From a virus, in the IMG/VR virus record IMGVR_UViG_3300028578_000005, positions 1 to 45,041 of that record: a stretch of DNA of 45,041 nt. One strand, written 5' to 3'. Numbering within the stretch: position 1 is the stretch's first letter; each line of letters opens with the position of its first letter. The notes beneath the pieces were generated by a model. The model had not been told where the DNA came from and did not search any database. It was given only the letters and a program-made list of their open reading frames with translations. This document shows positions 234 through 45,041 of this stretch, piece by piece. Made by a program: the position numbers and the translations under genes.

Positions 234-473
234 GGCGCGGCCCGGCGCGTCGCCGAGCTCGCAGCCGACCCCGCTCTGGTCAACCGTGGCGCGGTCGACG
301 CCGCCGTGGAAGCCGTGCTGTCGGGGGCCACCGCGAAGGGCCTGCCGATGACGGACCGGGCGGCCGCGACGCTCGAGCTCCTGCGTCGCGGTGCCCGGTC
401 CGGCACCATCCAGCGCCTTGGCTGGTCCGGTCTCTACGCCGGCGCGTGGGTCGCCTGGTGGGAGCAGCGGTGA
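3..473 (+). CDS. C-terminal part of Zn-finger / 15-aa tandem-repeat protein (5-prime end lies at 44709..45041 across the window junction)
   Basis: Open frame 3 from the window edge to TGA 471-473, with high GC3. It encodes RAY[Y/R]EANKDEIAEK[Q/K] repeats followed by a 79-aa non-repeat tail ending WVAWWEQR. It is absent from the ORF track because it has no start codon in the window. Confidence 0.8.
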   Translation, partial: RAYYEANKDEIAEKQRAYREANKDEIAEKQRAYREANKDEIAEKKRAYYEANKDEIAEKKRAYREANKDEIAEKQRAGAARRVAELAADPALVNRGAVDAAVEAVLSGATAKGLPMTDRAAATLELLRRGARSGTIQRLGWSGLYAGAWVAWWEQR

Positions 474-3454
474 CAGTCCTCGCCCCGCACCTCGCGCAGG
501 CCGCCGCCGACGCTGCGGACGTCGACGTCGACGTGCTCCTCGACGCCGTCCAGATCGCGCTCGGCGGCGGTCCCGACGAGACCGCTCCCGACTGGATCAG
601 CTGGGCCTCGTGCCGCACCGAGCACACCGACACGTACTTCCCCGGGCGGGGCCAGGACTCCAAGCACGTCGTCGAGGACTGCAAGGAGCGCTGCGCCGTG
701 CAGGCCGAGTGCCTCGGCGCCGCGCTGGCCTACGGGGAACGCGAGGGCGTGTGGGGCGGCACCTCGAGCGCGGCGCGGCTCCGGCTCCGCAACGTCCTGC
801 GCGAGGCCGGCCTGCTCGGTGTCACCGGCGAAGACGCCCACATCGCGTGGCGCGAGTCCGGCGCCGACCACGAGCCCCCCACCCGCCTCGACGTCCGCCG
901 GATCCGCAAGCCCTGGCCGCACCAGCTGCAGGCCGTCGACGCCATCGTCGACGCGATCCGTGACGGCGGGATCTGCCAGATCGCCATGGCCACCGGATCC
1001 GGCAAGACCTGGGTGTCCTTCGCCGCGGCCGCAGAGCTCCAGGCGCGCACCGTCCTCGTACTCATGCCCAGCCTCGCGCTCGTCACCCAGAGCGCGGCGG
1101 CCTGGCGCGCCGACGAGCGGTGGGCCGACACCCCCATGCTCGCCGTCTGCTCGGACACCGGCGGCTCGGGCCTCGAGGCCACGACCGACCCCGACCGCGT
1201 CTCGGAGTTCGCGGCCGGCGGGGGAGTGGTGTTCGGCACCTACCAGTCCTCCGACGTCCTCATCGCCTCCCGGGTCTGCTTCGACCTGGTCATCGCAGAC
1301 GAGGCCCACCACCTCGCCGGCGACGCCGACAAGACCTTCGCCGCGATCGTCCGCGGCGAGATCCTCTGCGACCGCACCCTGTACATGACCGCCACACCCC
1401 GCCGGTTCCTCAAGAAGCGGTCCGGGCCCGACGTCGACGTCGTCTCCATGGACGACCACGCCGCCTTCGGGCCGCGCGTCTACGAGCTGTCCCTGTCCGA
1501 CGCCGTCGACGCCGGCGTCATCGCCGACTACCGCGTCGTCGTCGCTGCGGTCGACCGGCACGTGTTCGACAAGATCGCCGAGCACCCCGACATGGAAGGC
1601 GTCGACCCGCACCTCCTGGCCGGGGCGATCGCCATCGTCGAGGCCATGGGCACCATGCGCCTCACGTCGTGCGTGTCGTTCCACACCCGCGTCGAACGGG
1701 CCCGGTCGTTCAGCCGCCTCGTCGGCGCCGTCGCCGACCTACTGCCGGGGATCCGCCCGATCCGCCCGGGCTGGGCCGGCTACATCAGCGGCGACACCTC
1801 CGTCCGGATCCGCGACCGGCTCCTCGCCCGACTCGCTGACCGGACCACCTGGGGAGTCCTCGCGAACGCCAAAGCCCTCGGCGAAGGCGTCGACCTCCCC
1901 GAGCTCGACGCCGTCGCCATCGTCGACCCCAAGAACAGCGAGGTCGACGTCCTCCAGGCCACCGGCCGCGCCCTGCGCCGGCCGACAGGCACCACCAAGG
2001 TCGGCACCGTCCTGCTCCCCGTCCTCGTCGACGAGGGCGCCGCGATCGACGACCCCATGTCCGGCATCGACGAGCGGTCCATCGGCCTCGTCGCCGGCGT
2101 CCTCCGTGCCCTGCGCACCTACGACACCGAGCTCGGCGGCCGCCTCGACGCGATCCGCCGCGGCAACGCACGCCGGTCGATCGACCCCGAAGCCACACCA
2201 GAGCTCGTCTACGCCATGCGCGCCAGGGCAGCCCGCGGGCTCCTGCAGTCCCGCGTCGAGCTCCACCTCCCCGGCGGGGCCGTCGGCGACCTCGCCGGCG
2301 CCATGGCCCTCCACCTGGTCCGCGAAGCCACCGCCTCCTGGGACGAGGCCTACGGGAGGCTCCAGGCCTGGGTCGCCGAACACGGCCACTGCCGCATCCC
2401 ACAGTCCGCCGAGGTCACCATGACCGCCGACACGACCTCGACCCTCGGCCAGTGGGTATCGCGCCAACGGACCCTGCACCGCCGCGGGCTCCTCGCAACC
2501 GAACGAGTCGACGCCCTCGAGAAGCTCCCCGGCTGGATGTGGAACGCCCGCGACGAAGCCTGGTGGGAGAAGTTCGACGTGTTCGAGGAGTTCGTCCGCT
2601 CCCACGGCCGGTACCCAACCCAGTTCGAGGAATGGCACGACGTCAAGGTCGGGAACTTCCTGTGGGGCATCCGCGCCGGCGTGAAGCCCAACGACGACGC
2701 GTGGCTCACCAGATTCCCCGACCGCGTCGCGGCGATCGAAGCGCTGCCGGGCTGGACCTGGGACCCGCGCGCCGCGTGGTGGGAAGAGCACTTCGCCCAG
2801 CTCGAGCGGTGGGCCGCCGCCAACGGACACGCCCACCCCTCCCAAGGCGACTGCGCCGAAGACGGCTTCGACCTCGGCAAGTGGACCGCCAAGGAGCGCG
2901 GGAAGATCCGGGGTGGGCGGCGCACCCCCGACCAGGCCGCCCGGCTCCGCGCGCTCCCCGGGTGGGTCGACGACTTCAAGCAGGTCAGCACCGACATGTG
3001 GGAAGACGGGTTCTCCCGCTGCGCCGAGTGGATGGCCACCAACGGCGGGATGCCACCCCAGTCGCTCCGCCTCGACGACGGCTACCGCCTCGGCACCTGG
3101 GTCGCCAAGCAGCGCGAGTCCTACCGCGGCCGCCGCGCGGCCAGCACCCTCTCACCCGAGCGCATCGCCCGCCTCGAGGCCCTCCCCGGGTGGACGTGGA
3201 TACCGCACGACGAAGGCTGGGCGCGCGCCTTCGAGCTGCTCGAGCGCATCGCACCCGCACGCCAGACCGCCGACGGCGAGCTGCTCCTGCCCACCGACGA
3301 CGTCGACGGGTTCGGCCTCAGCGCATGGGCGTACAACCAGCGCCGCGCCTACGCCGCCGGCGAGCTCTCCACCGAGCGCACCGCGCTGCTCGAGACCATC
3401 CCCGGCTGGGTGTGGGACGCCCGCAAGGGCCGCCGCCTCGCCAGCGCGTCGTAA
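470..3454 (+). CDS. WhiB-like domain fused to SF2 (DEAH) helicase with five C-terminal helicase-associated (HA) repeats
   Basis: ORF track 446..3454; GTG 470 overlaps the upstream TGA (GTGA). Motifs: four-Cys WhiB-like region SCRTEH...DCKERCAVQAEC...GVWGG; Walker A MATGSGKT; DEAH box VIADEAHH; motif VI QATGRALR; five repeats of W..F..L..HG...P....LG.W...QR......L...R...L..LPGW.W. Confidence 0.85.
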   Translation: MTVLAPHLAQAAADAADVDVDVLLDAVQIALGGGPDETAPDWISWASCRTEHTDTYFPGRGQDSKHVVEDCKERCAVQAECLGAALAYGEREGVWGGTSSAARLRLRNVLREAGLLGVTGEDAHIAWRESGADHEPPTRLDVRRIRKPWPHQLQAVDAIVDAIRDGGICQIAMATGSGKTWVSFAAAAELQARTVLVLMPSLALVTQSAAAWRADERWADTPMLAVCSDTGGSGLEATTDPDRVSEFAAGGGVVFGTYQSSDVLIASRVCFDLVIADEAHHLAGDADKTFAAIVRGEILCDRTLYMTATPRRFLKKRSGPDVDVVSMDDHAAFGPRVYELSLSDAVDAGVIADYRVVVAAVDRHVFDKIAEHPDMEGVDPHLLAGAIAIVEAMGTMRLTSCVSFHTRVERARSFSRLVGAVADLLPGIRPIRPGWAGYISGDTSVRIRDRLLARLADRTTWGVLANAKALGEGVDLPELDAVAIVDPKNSEVDVLQATGRALRRPTGTTKVGTVLLPVLVDEGAAIDDPMSGIDERSIGLVAGVLRALRTYDTELGGRLDAIRRGNARRSIDPEATPELVYAMRARAARGLLQSRVELHLPGGAVGDLAGAMALHLVREATASWDEAYGRLQAWVAEHGHCRIPQSAEVTMTADTTSTLGQWVSRQRTLHRRGLLATERVDALEKLPGWMWNARDEAWWEKFDVFEEFVRSHGRYPTQFEEWHDVKVGNFLWGIRAGVKPNDDAWLTRFPDRVAAIEALPGWTWDPRAAWWEEHFAQLERWAAANGHAHPSQGDCAEDGFDLGKWTAKERGKIRGGRRTPDQAARLRALPGWVDDFKQVSTDMWEDGFSRCAEWMATNGGMPPQSLRLDDGYRLGTWVAKQRESYRGRRAASTLSPERIARLEALPGWTWIPHDEGWARAFELLERIAPARQTADGELLLPTDDVDGFGLSAWAYNQRRAYAAGELSTERTALLETIPGWVWDARKGRRLASAS

Positions 3455-3481: not shown

Positions 3482-4201
3482 ATGACCACGACCACCATCG
3501 ACCTCGACGCCCTGCACCTCGAGCACGGCTCGCACAAGAACCCCGACGAGGGCATGTGCGTGATGGAGGCCGTCTCCCTGATGGCCGGCGAGCACTTCAC
3601 CGACGCCCCTGCGTGCGCGTCCCCGGTGATCCGGGCGTTCATGATCGGCTGGAACGACGCGCTTCCCGATGGCGATCGGCAGCAGCTCAAGCAGTACATC
3701 CCGCGCCTCATCGGCACCGCCGGCACACCCGAGCTCGAGGTCCGCCGCTCATGGATCGCTCTCGACTGGCTCGTGCGCGTGCAGGCGCCCGCGTGGCTGC
3801 GCCTCGCCGGGCTCGTCGACCAGGCCGCCCTCCTCGAGGGCATGCCCGAGGTCACTGCGGCAAGTGCACCGTCGATCAAGGCCCCCCTGCAGGCAGTCCG
3901 CGACGAGGCAGCGGCGAAGCGGGCCGCCGCCAGGGACGCCGCCTGGGCCGCCGCCGGGGACGCCGCCTGGGACGCCGCCTGGGACGCCGCCTGGGCCGCC
4001 GCCGGGGACGCCGCCGGGGACGCCGCCTGGGCCGCCGCCTGGGCCGCCGCCTGGGCCGCCGCCAGGGCCGCCGCCAGGGACGCCGCCTGGGCCGCCGCCG
4101 GGGACGCCGCCAGGGCCGCGCTCGAGCCCACCAAGGTCGAGCTCCAGGCCAAGGCCCACGAGCTCATCGAGCGCCTCATCACCGCCGAGGTCGCCATGTG
4201 A
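3482..4201 (+). CDS. Hypothetical protein with Cys-containing N-domain and 16 x [A/D]AA[W/G/R] repeat
   Basis: ORF track. aaaggag lies 8 nt upstream of the ATG. GC3 is high and the repeat is in frame. Confidence 0.8.
   Translation: MTTTTIDLDALHLEHGSHKNPDEGMCVMEAVSLMAGEHFTDAPACASPVIRAFMIGWNDALPDGDRQQLKQYIPRLIGTAGTPELEVRRSWIALDWLVRVQAPAWLRLAGLVDQAALLEGMPEVTAASAPSIKAPLQAVRDEAAAKRAAARDAAWAAAGDAAWDAAWDAAWAAAGDAAGDAAWAAAWAAAWAAARAAARDAAWAAAGDAARAALEPTKVELQAKAHELIERLITAEVAM
3923..4114 (+). repeat. 12-bp in-frame microsatellite-like tandem repeat (16 units)
   Basis: g[a/c]cgccgcc[tgg/ggg/agg] repeated 16 times, encoding AAAR DAAW AAAG DAAW and so on. Confidence 0.95.
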
Positions 4202-5805
4202 CAGATCTCGTCGACCCGCTCCTCCCTCCCGGCGCGCGACCGGTCCCCAACACCCCCGACGACACGGGGGTGGCGTCGCGCAACGGGCACCACCCGCCCC
4301 GCCAGGACGCACCCCCGCACGACCTCCAGGCCGAACGGTCCCTCCTCGGCGCCGCGATGCTCGGCAACGCCGGCCCGCTCCTCGAGCTCCCCGAGGCCGC
4401 GTTCTACAAGCCCGGCCACGGCCACATCGCGCACGCCATCCGCACGCTCGCCGGCGCCGGGTCCTACATCGACTCCCTCACCGTCCGCGCCCACCTCGAA
4501 GCCCAGGGCCTCCTCGACCAGGCCGGCGGGCCCGTACTCCTCGCCGAGATCCTCGCCGAATGCCCCGCCGCGTCCGGCGCCCCGACCTACGCCGACATCG
4601 TCCGCGACCACTGGCGCGCCCGCACCCTCGCCTACGCCGGCGAAGAGCTCCTCCGCACCGTCCGCACCCAAGGCCCCGACGCCGCCTACGCCCTCCTCGG
4701 GCCCCTCCTCGACGCCGGTGCCCCCACCCGCCGCAGCGACCGGCTCAAGCCCGGCTCCTGGCTCCTCGACTCACCAGCCACACCCCCCGCGATCTGGGGA
4801 CGCGACCACGAGGTCCTCTGGGCCGCCGGCGAACCATGCCTCCTCACCGGACCGCCCGGCGTCGGCAAGACCACCCTCTGCGCCCAGCTCCTCCGCGCAC
4901 GCCTCGGACTCGACGACCAGGTCCTCGGCTGGCCCGTCCAGCCCGAAGACCGCGGCGGCGTCCTCTACCTCGCGTCAGACCGGCCCCAACAGATCCGCCG
5001 TGCCCTCGCCCGCGTGTTCACCACCGCCGACCGCCAGATCCTCGACGACCAGCTCCAGATCTGGACCGGACCGCCCCCCGGCGACCTCGCCAAGAACACG
5101 TCCCTCCTCGTCGAGCTCGCCCAGCGCGCCGGCGCCCACACCGTCGTCCTCGACTCGCTCAAGGACATGGCCATCGGCCTGTCCGACGACGAGGTCGGCG
5201 CCGGCCTCAACCAGGCCATGCAGCTCGCCATCGCCAACGACATCGACGTCCTCGCGCTCCACCACCAGCGCAAGGGCACCGACGGCAAGCGCCCCAAGAC
5301 CCTCGAGGACCTCTACGGCTCCACCTGGATCAGCGCAGGCGCCGGCTCGGTCCTCCTCCTCTGGGGCGCCGCCGGCGACTCCATCGTCGAGCTCCACCAC
5401 CTCAAGCAGCCCGCCTCCGACGTCGGCCCCCTCAAGGTCGAGCACGACCACCACACCGGCGCCACCACCGTCTTCAAGGGCTTCGACATCGTCGCCTACC
5501 TCCGCCACCGCCCCAACGGCGTCACCGCCACCGACGTCGCCCGCGCCTGGCTCGAGAAGGACAAGCCCACCGACAACGAACGCAAGAAGGCCCAACGCCG
5601 CCTCGAGAACCTCGTCCGCCTCGGCCAGGCCCACAAGGTCCAGACCGACACCCGCCAACCCGACGGCACCGTCGCCCCCGCCCGCTTCTACCCCATCGAC
5701 ACCCGCCACCCAGACCCCGACCAGCCCCCCCTCCACGACCTCGAACCACCCCCCGACGAGCCCACCGACGACACCCCACCGGTGCCGTTCGAAGAGGAGT
5801 TCTGA
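4198..5805 (+). CDS. DnaB-N-terminal-like domain plus RecA-fold (RepA / AAA_25-like) ATPase, replicative helicase or loader candidate
   Basis: This is the coding part of the long open frame 2452..5805. GTG 4198 overlaps the upstream stop (ATGTGA). Motifs: LQAERSLLGAAML (DnaB N-terminal type), Walker A GPPGVGKT, Walker B-like HTVVLDSL. Confidence 0.8.
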   Translation: MTDLVDPLLPPGARPVPNTPDDTGVASRNGHHPPRQDAPPHDLQAERSLLGAAMLGNAGPLLELPEAAFYKPGHGHIAHAIRTLAGAGSYIDSLTVRAHLEAQGLLDQAGGPVLLAEILAECPAASGAPTYADIVRDHWRARTLAYAGEELLRTVRTQGPDAAYALLGPLLDAGAPTRRSDRLKPGSWLLDSPATPPAIWGRDHEVLWAAGEPCLLTGPPGVGKTTLCAQLLRARLGLDDQVLGWPVQPEDRGGVLYLASDRPQQIRRALARVFTTADRQILDDQLQIWTGPPPGDLAKNTSLLVELAQRAGAHTVVLDSLKDMAIGLSDDEVGAGLNQAMQLAIANDIDVLALHHQRKGTDGKRPKTLEDLYGSTWISAGAGSVLLLWGAAGDSIVELHHLKQPASDVGPLKVEHDHHTGATTVFKGFDIVAYLRHRPNGVTATDVARAWLEKDKPTDNERKKAQRRLENLVRLGQAHKVQTDTRQPDGTVAPARFYPIDTRHPDPDQPPLHDLEPPPDEPTDDTPPVPFEEEF

Positions 5806-5873
5806 TGCAACTTGAGTCACCCATTGATAGGGGGGGTCGGACCCATTCTCATTACCGACCCCAAAACGAGAAC

Positions 5874-5987
5874 CCCAGGTCACAGCCACTGCCACCATCC
5901 ACGGACATCCACGGACACTCCACGGACACGATCCACGGACATCCACGTCCACTTTTCGCAAAAGCCCAGGTCACAGCCACTGCCACC
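5874..5987 (+). repeat. Two 23-bp direct repeats flanking an array of phased CCACGGAC repeats (iteron- or pac-like)
   Basis: cccaggtcacagccactgccacc occurs at 5874..5896 and 5965..5987. ccacggac occurs 4 times plus a degenerate ccacgtcc between 5897 and 5952, at 10-13 bp spacing. One more gccacggacg lies at 6009..6018. Confidence 0.9.
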
Positions 5988-37547: not shown

Positions 37548-37982
37548 TCATCCCTTGCGGCGGTCACGTGCCCGATCGAGAGCGATCTCCGCCTGGCGGA
37601 TGATCGCCTGGTAGGCCTCAGGGTCCAGCCGGCGCAGCTCGTCGAGATCGACCCCCGACGCGCTGATTCGTACGCCTCGGCCGCCCGCCTTGCCTCCACC
37701 CTTCACCGAAGCCTTGCCCGTGACCTCAGTCGGCGGTTCGTACCCGAGGAGCCGGGTGAAGTGGCCCGGGAACAGGTCGAAGATCCGCTCGAGGGCGAAA
37801 ACCTTGTCCCGGGACGGCTCGGACTCGCCACGGCACCACTCACCGACCGCGCTCCCCGTCACCGTGATGGCCTCGTCCTGGGCGAGGACGCTGGCGACGT
37901 GCGCGTAGGACCACTCGCGGGCCTTGCGCCACTGGTTGAGCTCGGTGGCGAAGAGCTCGAGGCGGGGGTCGGGGGTGGCCAT
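37548..37982 (-). CDS. XRE-family (CI/ImmR-like) repressor
   Basis: ATG at 37982 within ORF 37548..38609. HTH WSYAHVASVLAQDEAITVTGSAVGEWCRGESEPS. Divergent from the Cro-like gene. Confidence 0.75.
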   Translation of the reverse strand: MATPDPRLELFATELNQWRKAREWSYAHVASVLAQDEAITVTGSAVGEWCRGESEPSRDKVFALERIFDLFPGHFTRLLGYEPPTEVTGKASVKGGGKAGGRGVRISASGVDLDELRRLDPEAYQAIIRQAEIALDRARDRRKG

Positions 37983-38139
37983 CGTGGTGCGCACTCTCCG
38001 TGACCACCCGAGGGCTGTCCACGGCCAAAGAAAAGTGTTGCTTGCGACTGTAGTTCCCTGCCTGTAGTTCACTGTCGGCCGCAGGCGCCGCCGATTAATC
38101 ACAAGTTGCCCTTGCACAAGGACGCCCCATGGGTTACAA
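37983..38139. promoter_or_regulatory. Divergent immunity control region with operator-like repeats
   Basis: The most AT-rich stretch of the window. Tandem ctgtagttc[c/a]ctg at 38048..38060 and 38062..38074. t[c/t]acaagt[t/g]g at 38099 and 38134. 9-bp inverted repeat cacaaggac (38115..38123) / gtccttgtg (38143..38151). Confidence 0.7.
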
Positions 38140-38409
38140 GTGGTCCTTGTGAATGCGCCCGTGACCCAGATCGGCACCGAACCGGACCCTGCCGTGCGCC
38201 TCCGCCAGCTGTGGGGTCGCAACATCAGCCGTCTCCGCGAGCTCCGCGGCATGACCCGCGCCGAGCTCGCCCTGGCCTGTGACGTGTCCGAGGCCGCCGT
38301 CGGCCAGTGGGAGAGGGGCGAGACCACCCCGCGGCCCCACAAGCAGATCGCCGCGGCCAAGGCCCTCGACGCTGAGCACGGCGTCGTCTTCCCGATGGTG
38401 GCCGCGTGA
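38140..38409 (+). CDS. Cro-like XRE HTH protein (start uncertain: GTG 38140, 38149 or 38161)
   Basis: ORF track. LRELRGMTRAELALACDVSEAAVGQWERGETTP. Confidence 0.7.
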   Translation: MVLVNAPVTQIGTEPDPAVRLRQLWGRNISRLRELRGMTRAELALACDVSEAAVGQWERGETTPRPHKQIAAAKALDAEHGVVFPMVAA

Positions 38410-42723: not shown

Positions 42724-43197
42724 ATGACCACCGCCGCTGACACCACCCTCGGCGACTTCGAAGGCGACGCCGTCGAGTCCGTCGGCATCGAGATCCCCTC
42801 CGCCGCCGGCGGCCTGCGCGACGCCTTGGCGATCGACCCGATCGTCATGCACAAGGACGACGAGTCCATGGTGCTGCTGCGCTGCAAGGTCCAGAAGATC
42901 CGCCACGACCCCGTCAAGGACTCTGACGGGTGGCGGCGCGTCCACATCCTCGAGACGACCTCCGCGACGATCGTCGACGGCGACGTGTTCGAGGAGGCCC
43001 TCGCTGCGCAGGCCGAGCGCATCGAGAAGGCCAAGGCCGAGGAGCAGCGCCGCAAGGACGCCGAGGCCGGCCAGGGCCGCATCGATGACGCCGCGGTCGA
43101 CGCCGCACACGACGCCGGCGACCACGCCGGCGGGCTCGTCGTCGGCTGCTCCAAGTGCGAGGCCGAGAAGGCCGCAGTGGAGGCCGAGGACGCGTGA
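42724..43197 (+). CDS. Hypothetical protein (157 aa)
   Basis: ORF track. GAGGAGG upstream. Confidence 0.65.
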   Translation: MTTAADTTLGDFEGDAVESVGIEIPSAAGGLRDALAIDPIVMHKDDESMVLLRCKVQKIRHDPVKDSDGWRRVHILETTSATIVDGDVFEEALAAQAERIEKAKAEEQRRKDAEAGQGRIDDAAVDAAHDAGDHAGGLVVGCSKCEAEKAAVEAEDA

Positions 43198-43337
43198 CCC
43201 GGCAGGACCGGGTCGTCTACTGGATCGCCGGCGTCGCGTTCCTCGGCGCGCTCGTGCTGCTCGGCCTGCAGGGCCCGGAGCCCTGCCTCGACCCGCACAA
43301 CACCGCCTGCGCGGTGCCCTACCGAGAGGAGCCCTGA
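43194..43337 (+). CDS. Small membrane protein (47 aa)
   Basis: GTG 43194 (GTGA overlap) within ORF 43155..43337. VVYWIAGVAFLGALVLLGL. Confidence 0.45.
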   Translation: MTRQDRVVYWIAGVAFLGALVLLGLQGPEPCLDPHNTACAVPYREEP

Positions 43338-43780
43338 TGGGCACGACCCTGACCTACACCGAGCAGCTGATCGTCGAGGAGTGCCCGACGTGTGGCTGCA
43401 AGCACGGGATACCCGCCGGCCTCCGCCAGCGCGCGCTCGAGAACCCAGGGCCGCGCAACAAGCTCTACTGCCCGAGCGGCCACACGTGGTGGTTCACCGG
43501 CAAGAGCGACGCCGAGAAGCTCCAGGAGCAGCTCGACGCCACGGAGCGGAAGCTGGCGGCCGAACGGGCCCGTCGCGACCAGGCCGAGGCGGACGCCGAG
43601 CACGAGCGCCGCCGAGCCAACGGCTACAAGGGGGCCGCCGCCAAGACGAAGAAGCGCGCGGCCAAGGGCGTGTGCCCGGCGCCGGGCTGCAAGCGCTCGT
43701 TCGTCGACGTCGCCAAGCACGTCGCCACCTGCCACCCCGACCTCGAAGCTGCGCCTGTCGAGCCCGTCGGCGCTCCATGA
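43337..43780 (+). CDS. Zinc-ribbon / coiled-coil hypothetical protein
   Basis: ATG 43337 (TGATG overlap) within ORF 43085..43780. CPTCGC...CPSGH and CPAPGC....H....CH clusters. Confidence 0.6.
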   Translation: MGTTLTYTEQLIVEECPTCGCKHGIPAGLRQRALENPGPRNKLYCPSGHTWWFTGKSDAEKLQEQLDATERKLAAERARRDQAEADAEHERRRANGYKGAAAKTKKRAAKGVCPAPGCKRSFVDVAKHVATCHPDLEAAPVEPVGAP

Positions 43781-43947: not shown

Positions 43948-44087
43948 TCTCGACGCAGCCCGTGCACGACCCTCGGACCTGCCCGACCTGTGGGCCCATC
44001 ATCGCCAGCGAGGCCTACCGGCGCGGTCTCGAGCGCGCCGGCCGCATGGACATCCCCCTCGTGGTCGATCGGGAGCCCGTCCGGTGA
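43944..44087 (+). CDS. Hypothetical protein (47 aa)
   Basis: GTG 43944 (GTGA overlap) within ORF 43902..44087. Confidence 0.45.
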   Translation: MISTQPVHDPRTCPTCGPIIASEAYRRGLERAGRMDIPLVVDREPVR

Positions 44088-44563
44088 CCGTCATCGTCGA
44101 CTTCACTGCCATCGGCACCCCGCGTCCCCAGGGCTCGAAGCGGGCGTTCATCGCCAACGGCCGCGCCGTGATGACCGAGACCAACCAGGCCGGACACCGC
44201 GACTGGCGCGCCACCGTCCAGCAGGCCGCCATCGAGGCCATGGCCGGGCGGCCTCCTGTCGACGGGCCGATCGAGACGCTCGTGACGTTCGCTCTCCCGC
44301 GCCCCGGGTCGCACCCCAAGAGCAGGCGGACCTGGCCGGTCAAGCGCCCCGACTACGACAAGCTCGTCCGCGCCGTCAACGACTCGCTCACCCACGTGGT
44401 GTGGCGCGACGACTCGCAGATCGTCGACGCCCGCGTCCGCAAGGTGTGGGCCCACGTTGACGTCGCCATGGCCCCGGGTGTCCGCGTCGTGGTCCGCACC
44501 GCGGAGACCACCGAGGTCGCCTCGGCCGACGCCGGGCAGCTGCAGCTCGGAGTGAACGCGTGA
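44084..44563 (+). CDS. rusA: RusA-family Holliday junction resolvase
   Basis: ORF track. GTPRPQGSKR ... RPDYDKLVRAVNDSL ... WRDDSQIV. Confidence 0.8.
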   Translation: MTVIVDFTAIGTPRPQGSKRAFIANGRAVMTETNQAGHRDWRATVQQAAIEAMAGRPPVDGPIETLVTFALPRPGSHPKSRRTWPVKRPDYDKLVRAVNDSLTHVVWRDDSQIVDARVRKVWAHVDVAMAPGVRVVVRTAETTEVASADAGQLQLGVNA

Positions 44564-44712
44564 GCGCGCCCCGTCCCGTCCTGGCCCGGCTATGGCTGGG
44601 CTCGTTGTCGCTTGCGGTGACCGCTGGCGTGATGGGGCGCATCGCGATCGACCCGCCCTCGCCGTTCATCCTCGACCGACCCGAGGTCGAGATGCGCGAG
44701 GCACAGCGGTGA
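44560..44712 (+). CDS. Small hypothetical protein (50 aa)
   Basis: GTGA overlaps at both ends. Below the ORF-track cut-off. Confidence 0.4.
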   Translation: MSAPRPVLARLWLGSLSLAVTAGVMGRIAIDPPSPFILDRPEVEMREAQR

Positions 44713-45041
44713 GCGCGGCCGAGCACGACATGACCGACCGGCCAGCCGACGCCGCTGACCTGACGTGCCCCGAGTGTGGGTACGTCGCCGCCGCGCCACA
44801 GGGCCTGGGCGCGCATCGTCACTACCAGCACGGGGTCACGGGGGACATCAACTATGGACGACGGATCGCCGAGAAGCAGCGGGCGTACTACGAGGCCAAC
44901 AAGGACGAGATCGCCGAGAAGAAGCGGGCGTACTACGAGGCCAACAAGGACGAGATCGCCGAGAAGCAGCGGGCGTACCGCGAGGCCAACAAGGACGAGA
45001 TCGCCGAGAAGCAGCGGGCGTACTACGAGGCCAACAAGGAC
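44709..45041 (+). CDS. N-terminal part of C2H2 zinc-finger / 15-aa tandem-repeat protein (continues at 3..473)
   Basis: GTG 44709 (GTGA overlap). CPECG-x12-H-x4-H finger. The repeats start at 44865. The frame is open to the last base of the window and is in phase with frame 3 at the window start. Confidence 0.8.
   Translation, partial: MSAAEHDMTDRPADAADLTCPECGYVAAAPQGLGAHRHYQHGVTGDINYGRRIAEKQRAYYEANKDEIAEKKRAYYEANKDEIAEKQRAYREANKDEIAEKQRAYYEANKD
44865..45041 (+). repeat. 45-bp in-frame tandem repeat array (3.9 units, cut by window edge)
   Basis: Same unit as 1..233. Confidence 0.95.

Follow-up and report, generated by a model that had tools for sequence, protein, structure and literature searches.

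We analyzed a window of 45,041 nucleotides (nt) from a virus (IMG/VR record IMGVR_UViG_3300028578_000005, positions 1 to 45,041) and focused on the gene that runs across its two ends and carries a 45 bp tandem repeat. The product is a three-module protein: an N-terminal C2H2-like finger, a ~140-residue helix of eight and a half repeat units, and a small C-terminal helical domain. We propose that it is a modular bipartite DNA-binding protein in which the repeat rod serves as an interaction or positioning arm, with the variable residues of the units on a basic aromatic face; we give this reading a probability of roughly 0.4. What we observe directly is that such arrays gain and lose units and become homogenized as they evolve, and that positions 4, 5, and 9 of the unit remain polymorphic inside each array and change fast between close relatives.

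Tandem Repeats Finder (TRF) reported the 45 bp array at both ends of the window, as 4.1 copies with 94% matches at 44860-45041 and as 5.2 copies with 95% matches at 1-233. The first 29 nt of the window are an exact copy of the last 29 nt, and there was no longer exact overlap. An earlier sequence-only reading had simply abutted the two ends; taken literally, this join loses the frame and was ruled out; the ends overlap instead. Merging the 29 nt overlap gave a single open reading frame (ORF) of 258 amino acids (aa), from the GTG at 44709 to the TGA at 471-473, which is laid out as follows.

44709-45041, + strand: repeat gene, 5′ part; its GTG start and the stop of the small ORF before it share the sequence GTGA, and the same start was called in contig L001
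44766-44831, + strand: zinc-finger-like motif C20-x2-C23-x12-H36-x4-H41, read directly from the sequence
44865-45041, + strand: repeat array, first part, units 1-3 and most of unit 4 (sequence, TRF)
1-29, + strand: terminal overlap, an exact duplicate of 45013-45041, to be merged and not concatenated; validated against L001
30-212, + strand: repeat array, second part, from the end of unit 4 through unit 8 (sequence, TRF)
213-236, + strand: partial ninth unit IAEKQRAG, the last, decayed part of the array before the C-terminal region (sequence)
237-473, + strand: C-terminal helical domain (ELAAD…RRG…RLGW…WW) with the TGA at 471-473, conserved in the orthologues P0009 and P0014

The merged ORF holds eight full units, IAEK[Q/K]RAY[Y/R]EANKDE, followed by the partial ninth. 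The DNA of the eight units differs only at codon 5 (CAG or AAG, encoding Q or K) and codon 9 (TAC or CGC, encoding Y or R), and the units run in the order QY, KY, QR, QY, QR, QR, KY, KR. We found an identical 258-aa protein already on record (P0001), encoded by L001, an independent MEGAHIT contig of 11,183 bp that spans the whole array and has genes on both flanks. L001 is collinear with the merged window and differs from it by only two single-nucleotide polymorphisms (SNPs), at 42810 and 42813, neither of them in the array. The merged ORF and L001 together bear out the GTG start at 44709, the roughly eight 45 bp units, and the two variable sites of the sequence-only reading, and its unit order matches the merged ORF exactly. 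Since a second contig carries the same units, neither the array nor its copy number and order can be put down to an artefact of one contig. The window represents a circular or circularly permuted genome, broken by the assembler within the repeat.

We next compared 15 distinct near-identical arrays at the DNA level. Each had 4 or more units with a mean pairwise identity of 90% or higher; their loci ranged from 52% to 73% GC, and the set came from about nine protein lineages. The amino acid at position 9 was polymorphic in all 15 arrays (R/Y), that at position 5 in 10, and that at position 4 in 8, and any other unit position was polymorphic in at most 4 of the 15; only 8 codon-instances were polymorphic at synonymous sites alone. 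In the family that carries an XRE-type helix-turn-helix (HTH) domain (54 proteins, 209 units), variation was confined to positions 4 (K/Y/R), 5 (Q/R/K/H), and 9 (R/Y/H). In the window family, the evenly split sites are positions 5 (Q/K) and 9 (Y/R), at 1.0 bit each, with 4 Y and 4 R at position 9 of the window array itself; positions 1, 3, 13, and 14 have less entropy, which stems from differences among the three orthologues. Because homogenization spares the same codons in unrelated arrays, the pattern argues for selection that maintains a mixture at the two or three spared codons.

The rate of change at these positions points the same way. In 61 pairs of XRE-HTH proteins of equal length with flanks at least 90% identical (pairs that are not independent), we counted 0.375 differences per site at positions 4, 5, and 9, 0.017 at the other array positions, and 0.048 in the flanks. 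Judged by these sequence comparisons, a turnover ~8-fold that of the flanking domains looks like the signature of a selected interaction surface. Whole arrays also share array-specific states, such as K6 in L011 and L017, CGT versus CGC for Arg9, and differing residues at positions 3, 14, and 15, and we take these shared states to result from homogenization. Copy number ranges from 3 to 12 units among close relatives with near-identical flanks; for example, the flanks of L026 and L027 are identical, yet L026 has 12 units and L027 has 7, and the K/Q-Y/R order differs between them. Concerted evolution and variable copy number, both of which had been anticipated from the window alone, are thus supported by the range of 3-12 units and by the array-specific substitutions and codon choices.

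The order of R and Y in adjacent units looks random, and neither this order nor the mutual information between position 9 and 44 neighboring positions gave a clear signal of covariation. The top score, at position 10 (z=3.2), came from a few rare K/A variants at a near-invariant site, and a weak trend (z=1.9) paired an acidic position 5 with R9 and a basic one with Y9. L028 (1-438) departs from the apparently random order of the other arrays: its Y and R alternate strictly, and four units make up a higher-order repeat.

Judged by sequence, the repeat is a very large, uncurated family with the core K-A-Y-[R/Y]-E-A-N-K-E repeated every 15 or 11 residues. The window array carries the family core A-Y-x-E-A-N-K in eight units at exact 15-residue spacing and scored 250 bits against profile A2. 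It also matched PHROG 17714, of unknown function (E=4e-13), and, weakly, PHROGs 7091 and 2340 (HNH endonuclease and endonuclease; E about 1e-3); we found no model of the repeat in Pfam or NCBIfam. Our first homology search returned 86 proteins in which the one repeat unit is fused to different heads: the finger/C-terminal architecture of the window protein (P0009 with 5 units, P0014 with 2-3), a large XRE-HTH set from temperate phages, HNH, GIY-YIG, and EndoVII nucleases, and other small Zn-binding modules. The family profile, run against 1.84 billion cluster representatives, matched 110,732 of them at E<=1e-3, 40,664 at E<=1e-10, and 605 at E<=1e-30, all of which are upper bounds, with some weakly conserved flanking columns in the profile.

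Among the top 144 matches, the consensus architecture is a CxxC…CxxC Zn ribbon, ~7 units of K-x-Y-x-E-A-N-K-E, and then HNH. A Pfam census of the same 144 yielded HNH (58), HNH_5 (49), HNH_4 (17), EndoVII (5), HTH_3 (3), GIY-YIG (2), and one Helitron-like eukaryotic protein, and no family that covers the repeat itself. Most arrays of the family link a Zn ribbon to an HNH, EndoVII, or GIY-YIG head, or an N-terminal domain to an XRE-type HTH. The array is the sole non-catalytic region in P0020, P0038, P0043, and P0077 (array and HNH) and in P0024, P0040, and P0070 (GIY-YIG and array). Matches occurred in 65 GenBank phage records, often with 3-5 array genes per phage, annotated as "coil containing protein," "HNH endonuclease," "endonuclease VII," or "hypothetical protein," and some of these genes lie between structural genes, in the manner of homing-type nucleases. 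The resemblance to motifs of other phage proteins, with which the sequence-only reading had ended, therefore turned out to concern a very large family, mostly of HNH, EndoVII, and GIY-YIG fusions. Literature searches that covered the peptide motif, phage HNH enzymes with 15-residue repeats, and intragenic repeats of phages gave no description of the family, which appears to be undescribed although it is so large.

The sequence-only reading had also named free variation at all repeat positions in homologues as a point that would count against it. In divergent nuclease-linked arrays, we observed that positions 1-5 and 15 are indeed free, but that the core K6-A7-Y8-x9-E10-A11-N12-K13-E14 is kept; across the family, position 9 is R or Y in ~80% of units, giving the core K-A-Y-[R/Y]-E-A-N-K-E.

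Two further members of the family were noted. P0003 (432 aa, NCBI, from a 669-kb contig) has a DUF6745 N-terminal domain followed by 8-9 units; beyond them the ORF continues with SPRRSGRTTRPTR, the same repeat DNA read in the +1 frame. This marks a frameshift in the array that may be genuine or may stem from a sequencing error. P0091 (1204 aa), a eukaryote-type Helitron-like protein (Helitron_like_N, DUF6570), contains ~30-residue super-repeats of the motif, RQAQYNDAHRDTIAQ / RQTTYNEENREAINQ, which indicate that the repeat module reaches beyond phages.

AlphaFold2 predicted the P0001 array as helices of 14 residues, interrupted in DSSP by a single residue at the conserved Asn12 of each unit, at a predicted local distance difference test score (pLDDT) of 98; the predicted template modeling score (pTM) of the model was 0.46. 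For the divergent, HNH-fused P0020 (pLDDT 95-97), breaks fell at most Asn residues, and the helix of residues 76-115 continued unbroken through two of them. Since one P0020 helix passes two Asn uninterrupted, the breaks in these models would be minor irregularities of a nearly continuous rod and not hairpin turns. If straight, the helical stretch would be ~200 Å long (~140 residues x 1.5 Å). In L073, L075, P0020, P0006, and P0024, units of 11 residues (positions 5-15) are mixed with units of 15 residues in the same array, and the core-to-core spacing was 15 in 218 cases and 11 in 13 cases. As 15 and 11 residues are both near whole helical turns, this mixture fits a continuous helix with one conserved face. 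The confident helices (pLDDT 95-98) and the interchangeable units of 11 and 15 residues thus favor the helical 15-residue period that had been suggested from the window sequence.

On a 15/4 helical wheel, one face is basic and aromatic (K4, Y8, N12, I1, Q/K5, Y/R9, K13, and R6) and has the variable residues at its center; the opposite face is acidic and alanine-rich (E10, D14, E3, A7, A11, and E15). Net charge per unit was +1.88 on average in HNH-linked arrays, +0.41 in the HTH family, and −0.12 in the window array. Neither fold searches with both models (PDB, BFVD) nor sequence and profile searches of PDB returned anything significant for the rod. A toy backbone model with kinks at Asn gave anything from a near-straight rod to a superhelix of 11-Å radius depending on phi/psi and was not used.

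The ends of the protein are less clear. The finger spacing falls within the classical C2H2 pattern C-x2-4-C-x12-H-x3-5-H, and its Cys and His residues are kept in P0009 and P0014. The window N terminus had no zf-C2H2 match in Pfam; the orthologue P0014 matched zf-C2H2 at E=2.5e-4 and 21.8 bits, under the Pfam gathering threshold of 25.2, and also gave a weak, sub-threshold match to ROS_MUCR (E=0.012). AlphaFold modeled residues 1-50, the finger region, with low confidence (pLDDT 47-63). The C2H2 finger of the sequence-only reading therefore holds up in its spacing and conserved residues and falls short in its profile matches and model, and we consider "C2H2-like finger" a reasonable, if putative, label for the N terminus.

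The C-terminal domain comprises the last ~75 residues and is predicted to form 3-4 helices (pLDDT 83-93). We found it on its own, with neither finger nor array, as the 94-aa protein P0231 on a phage-like contig (L099, 958-1242), which makes it an autonomous module. P0231 was its one stand-alone relative among proteins, and a profile of the domain found nothing in a metagenome scan. Its sole family hint was a weak match to the AbiEi_4 winged HTH (E=0.087), and fold searches (PDB, BFVD) and PDB sequence and profile searches returned nothing significant. With the repeat deleted, the finger plus C-terminal domain was unmatched among 5.8 billion proteins.

We reasoned that the two end domains could hold DNA sites, and that the repeat rod would position and interact between them, with the basic face that bears the variable residues set against nucleic acid between or beside these sites. 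Array length would then set the reach or footprint of the protein, and the Q/K and Y/R pattern would tune its affinity or site preference. A specific partner protein as the ligand of the rod appears less likely than nucleic acid. Nucleic acid is favored because the array is the sole non-catalytic region, hence the sole candidate targeting module, in many nuclease relatives, because HNH-linked arrays are basic, and because the variable residues, Tyr versus Lys/Arg and Gln, are of the kinds that typically contact nucleic acid and are found on the basic face. Several points weigh against this proposal: the window array is about charge-neutral, unlike nuclease-linked arrays; AlphaFold modeled a rod and not a DNA-wrapping solenoid; the PDB and BFVD searches gave no similar solved or predicted structure; the case for the end domains as DNA binders rests on sub-threshold matches; and the 11/15 periodicity and the I1/x5/Y8/N12 stripe are equally compatible with a non-heptad coiled coil.

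The last of these points leads to a close rival, in which the array is an oligomerization stalk, a pentadecad/hendecad coiled coil that brings DNA-binding or nuclease heads together as dimers or tetramers. Its seam would consist of I1, x5, Y8, and N12, flanked by positions 4 and 9, and the exchange of Tyr for Lys/Arg and of Q for K would tune stability, register, or self/non-self pairing among the several array proteins that one phage may carry. Periods of 15 and 11 residues are known in coiled coils (PMC8203680), and the repeat family combines a 15-residue period with interchangeable 11-residue units. The long, confident AlphaFold helices, the near-neutral arrays of the window and the HTH family, and the "coil containing protein" annotation of relatives in GenBank all agree with a stalk, as does the presence of several array genes per phage, at 3-5 places per record. 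HNH and GIY-YIG heads with a single active site, and XRE HTH domains, would profit from dimerization, and a stalk would serve this general need. However, the seam is weakly hydrophobic: in the window, I1 and Y8 are apolar and x5 and N12 polar, and in divergent arrays Y8 is the sole conserved large apolar residue and position 1 is free (3.2 bits). A hypervariable interface would also be unusual in a homo-oligomer, and neither the R/Y order nor the neighboring positions show the covariation expected of paired residues. We regard the stalk as possible, and as somewhat less likely than the arm.

A passive rigid spacer, in which the array is a single stable α-helix that acts purely as a ruler for the distance between the end domains and the variable residues are tolerated noise, seems improbable. 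The unit has the intrahelical salt-bridge spacing for it (E3-R6-E10-K13 and E15-K4′, from the sequence), the predicted structure is a rod, and there is precedent for a repeat number that sets the spacing of DNA half-sites (PMC3874165). Nevertheless, A7, Y8, E10, A11, N12, and K13 of the core are kept in very distant and differently coded arrays, which exceeds the needs of a spacer; rod length differs up to fourfold among close relatives; and polymorphism at the same codons in 15 arrays whose synonymous sites are homogenized is not a neutral pattern.

We consider it a long shot that positions 4, 5, and 9 form a compact DNA/RNA recognition code, in the manner of transcription activator-like effectors (TALEs) or zinc fingers and with the shortest repeat known. 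The contact of each rod segment would then be specified by Tyr versus Lys/Arg and by Gln/Lys/Arg at these positions. For the TALE-like code on which the sequence-only reading had speculated, variation does gather at the three positions in unrelated arrays, but the units are segments of one helical rod and the window array is about charge-neutral. If such a code existed, shuffling of unit variants and changes in copy number would retarget phage nucleases and regulators.

The repeat gene lies in the early recombination and replication operon of a WhiB-encoding phage, the host of which is presumably actinobacterial. Its immediate neighbors are as follows.

44084-44563, + strand: RusA Holliday-junction resolvase, upstream neighbor (Pfam RusA, E=1.6e-19)
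44560-44712, + strand: 50-aa ORF, the stop of which overlaps the start of the repeat gene (gene call)
470-3454, + strand: WhiB domain fused to a DEAD/ResIII helicase with helicase-associated (HA) domains, downstream neighbor; its GTG start overlaps the stop of the repeat gene

On the 5′ side of the repeat gene are RecT, an RNase T-like exonuclease, several small ORFs, RusA, and the 50-aa ORF, and on the 3′ side are the WhiB-helicase gene, a gene for a 239-aa repeat protein, and a DnaB-like helicase gene. The genes nearby are all on the + strand, and both ends of the repeat gene have a GTGA start/stop overlap; because its start and stop codons overlap those of the adjoining genes, translational coupling with these neighbors is suggested. 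The orthologue P0009 is likewise encoded directly upstream of a WhiB gene, with DnaB farther along, and array genes have replication genes for neighbors in this window, in L070, and in Liberibacter phage SC1. In the last of these, gp170 (L097, 2453-2842) is a 129-aa protein that consists almost wholly of a divergent array (YYLKNRDK units) and is encoded directly upstream of a P4-type primase. A DNA search against cultivated phages matched the RusA neighbor alone.

This setting bears on a further alternative, in which the 45 bp repeats are DNA-level origin iterons in a lambda O-like initiator gene and the protein repeats a by-product. Helicase genes lie directly downstream, the unit DNA is identical without synonymous differences, and the array has a GC content of 64% versus 71% for the genome. 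We nonetheless hold origin iterons to be very improbable: the protein motif is kept in low-GC relatives with unrelated DNA, near-identical arrays also occur in nuclease genes and at other genomic positions, and 45 bp does not correspond to a whole number of DNA helical turns. We found no inverted repeat of at least 5 nt in the unit, no adjacent AT-rich stretch, and no inflection in GC skew, and the lowest GC near the array is that of the array itself (58-62%). Scarcely credible is an assembly artefact of the array or its copy number, which would fit a contig that breaks within the array and the many public contigs that end in array interiors, because L001, with its two SNPs elsewhere, spans the array with identical units in identical order, and because any three consecutive units are unique, so that a k=141 assembly graph should be able to resolve them. 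Short-read assemblies are regularly broken by the repeat, as in this window, and the public viral and metagenomic contigs L021, L024, L025, L028, L071, and L081 end inside such arrays.

Other features of the genome caught our attention. The 470-3454 product combines WhiB, a DEAD/ResIII helicase, and several HA domains in 994 aa, an unusual fusion. Between this gene and the DnaB-like gene, the ORF at 3482-4201 contains a second intragenic tandem array (3921-4119, a 12 bp unit x 16.6), which encodes the four-residue repeats AAW[D/A]/AAGD of the 239-aa protein; this protein had no Pfam match. Four genes 5′ of the repeat gene, 43337-43780 encodes a 147-aa protein with a Zn-ribbon-like CPTCGC motif, a charged helical middle, and a C-terminal finger-like CPAPGC-x12-H-x3-CH, the second Zn/helix/Zn protein of the operon and likewise one that had no Pfam match. 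The lowest-GC spots of the genome (55-59%; window GC is 71%) are at ~37976-38150, which includes a 14 bp direct repeat at 38048-38074, and at ~5776-5975. The former falls in the one stretch where long ORFs cluster on the minus strand (35.7-39.2 kb), possibly a region for regulation or lysogeny.

The repeat is carried by tens of thousands of proteins of phages and mobile elements, mostly free-standing HNH, EndoVII, and GIY-YIG nucleases. Target finding by many minimal phage nucleases would have an explanation if the variable surface reads nucleic acid, and the repeat could then offer a very compact scaffold for engineering; a pairing stalk would instead reveal how phages stop many similar rods from cross-pairing. 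In practice, the arrays are markers of variable copy number among closely related phages, in the manner of variable-number tandem repeats, and break short-read assemblies.

We compared the array with known systems. In Xanthomonas TALEs and bacterial TALE-likes, units of 33-35 aa are two-helix hairpins that build a superhelix around the DNA; a loop holds the variable residues, by which each unit recognizes a single base. The window array resembles them in its head-to-tail units that are near-identical in DNA, in two variable residues per unit, in variable copy number, and in a DNA-related context, but its units are of 15 residues (45 bp) in one nearly continuous predicted helix and its variable sites are essentially two-state. 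The TAL effector repeat model was unmatched in Pfam even at E<=10, and the resemblance is formal.

A single C2H2-spaced finger in a bacterial or phage protein recalls the Ros/MucR type, to which P0014 gave its weak match; however, that match is sub-threshold, and the window finger is unmatched and lacks the usual aromatic core residue (A27). PHROGs 17714, 7091, and 2340 match the array and leave the finger and C-terminal domain outside the match, and these clusters have no described function or repeat definition. In the HsdS subunits of EcoR124I/II, TAEL repeats lie in a helical connector between two DNA-recognition domains, and their copy number alters geometry (PMC3874165). Both systems place in-frame tandem repeats in a helical connector, although the TAEL repeats are 4 aa x 2-3 in an antiparallel coiled coil without hypervariable positions, as against 15 aa x 3-12 here. 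Non-heptad coiled coils, such as the VASP tetramerization domain, share the 15/11 periodicity and the semi-polar stripe at positions 1, 5, 8, and 12 (PMC8203680), but the stripe here is weakly hydrophobic and holds variable residues.

Homing endonucleases carry small accessory modules, single or in tandem, that are fused to HNH or GIY-YIG heads and are thought to supply targeting (PMC5714182). These NUMOD, AP2, and HTH modules have their HNH and GIY-YIG partners in common with the repeat family; they are small and globular, unlike the helical repeat rod, and the window protein is without a nuclease. NUMOD1, NUMOD3, and NUMOD4 were unmatched in P0001 and 154 relatives. In kind, we place the array with the repeat-built accessory modules of DNA-binding and homing-nuclease proteins, among which it is unusual for its family-wide R/Y dimorphism and its hypervariable positions 4 and 5.

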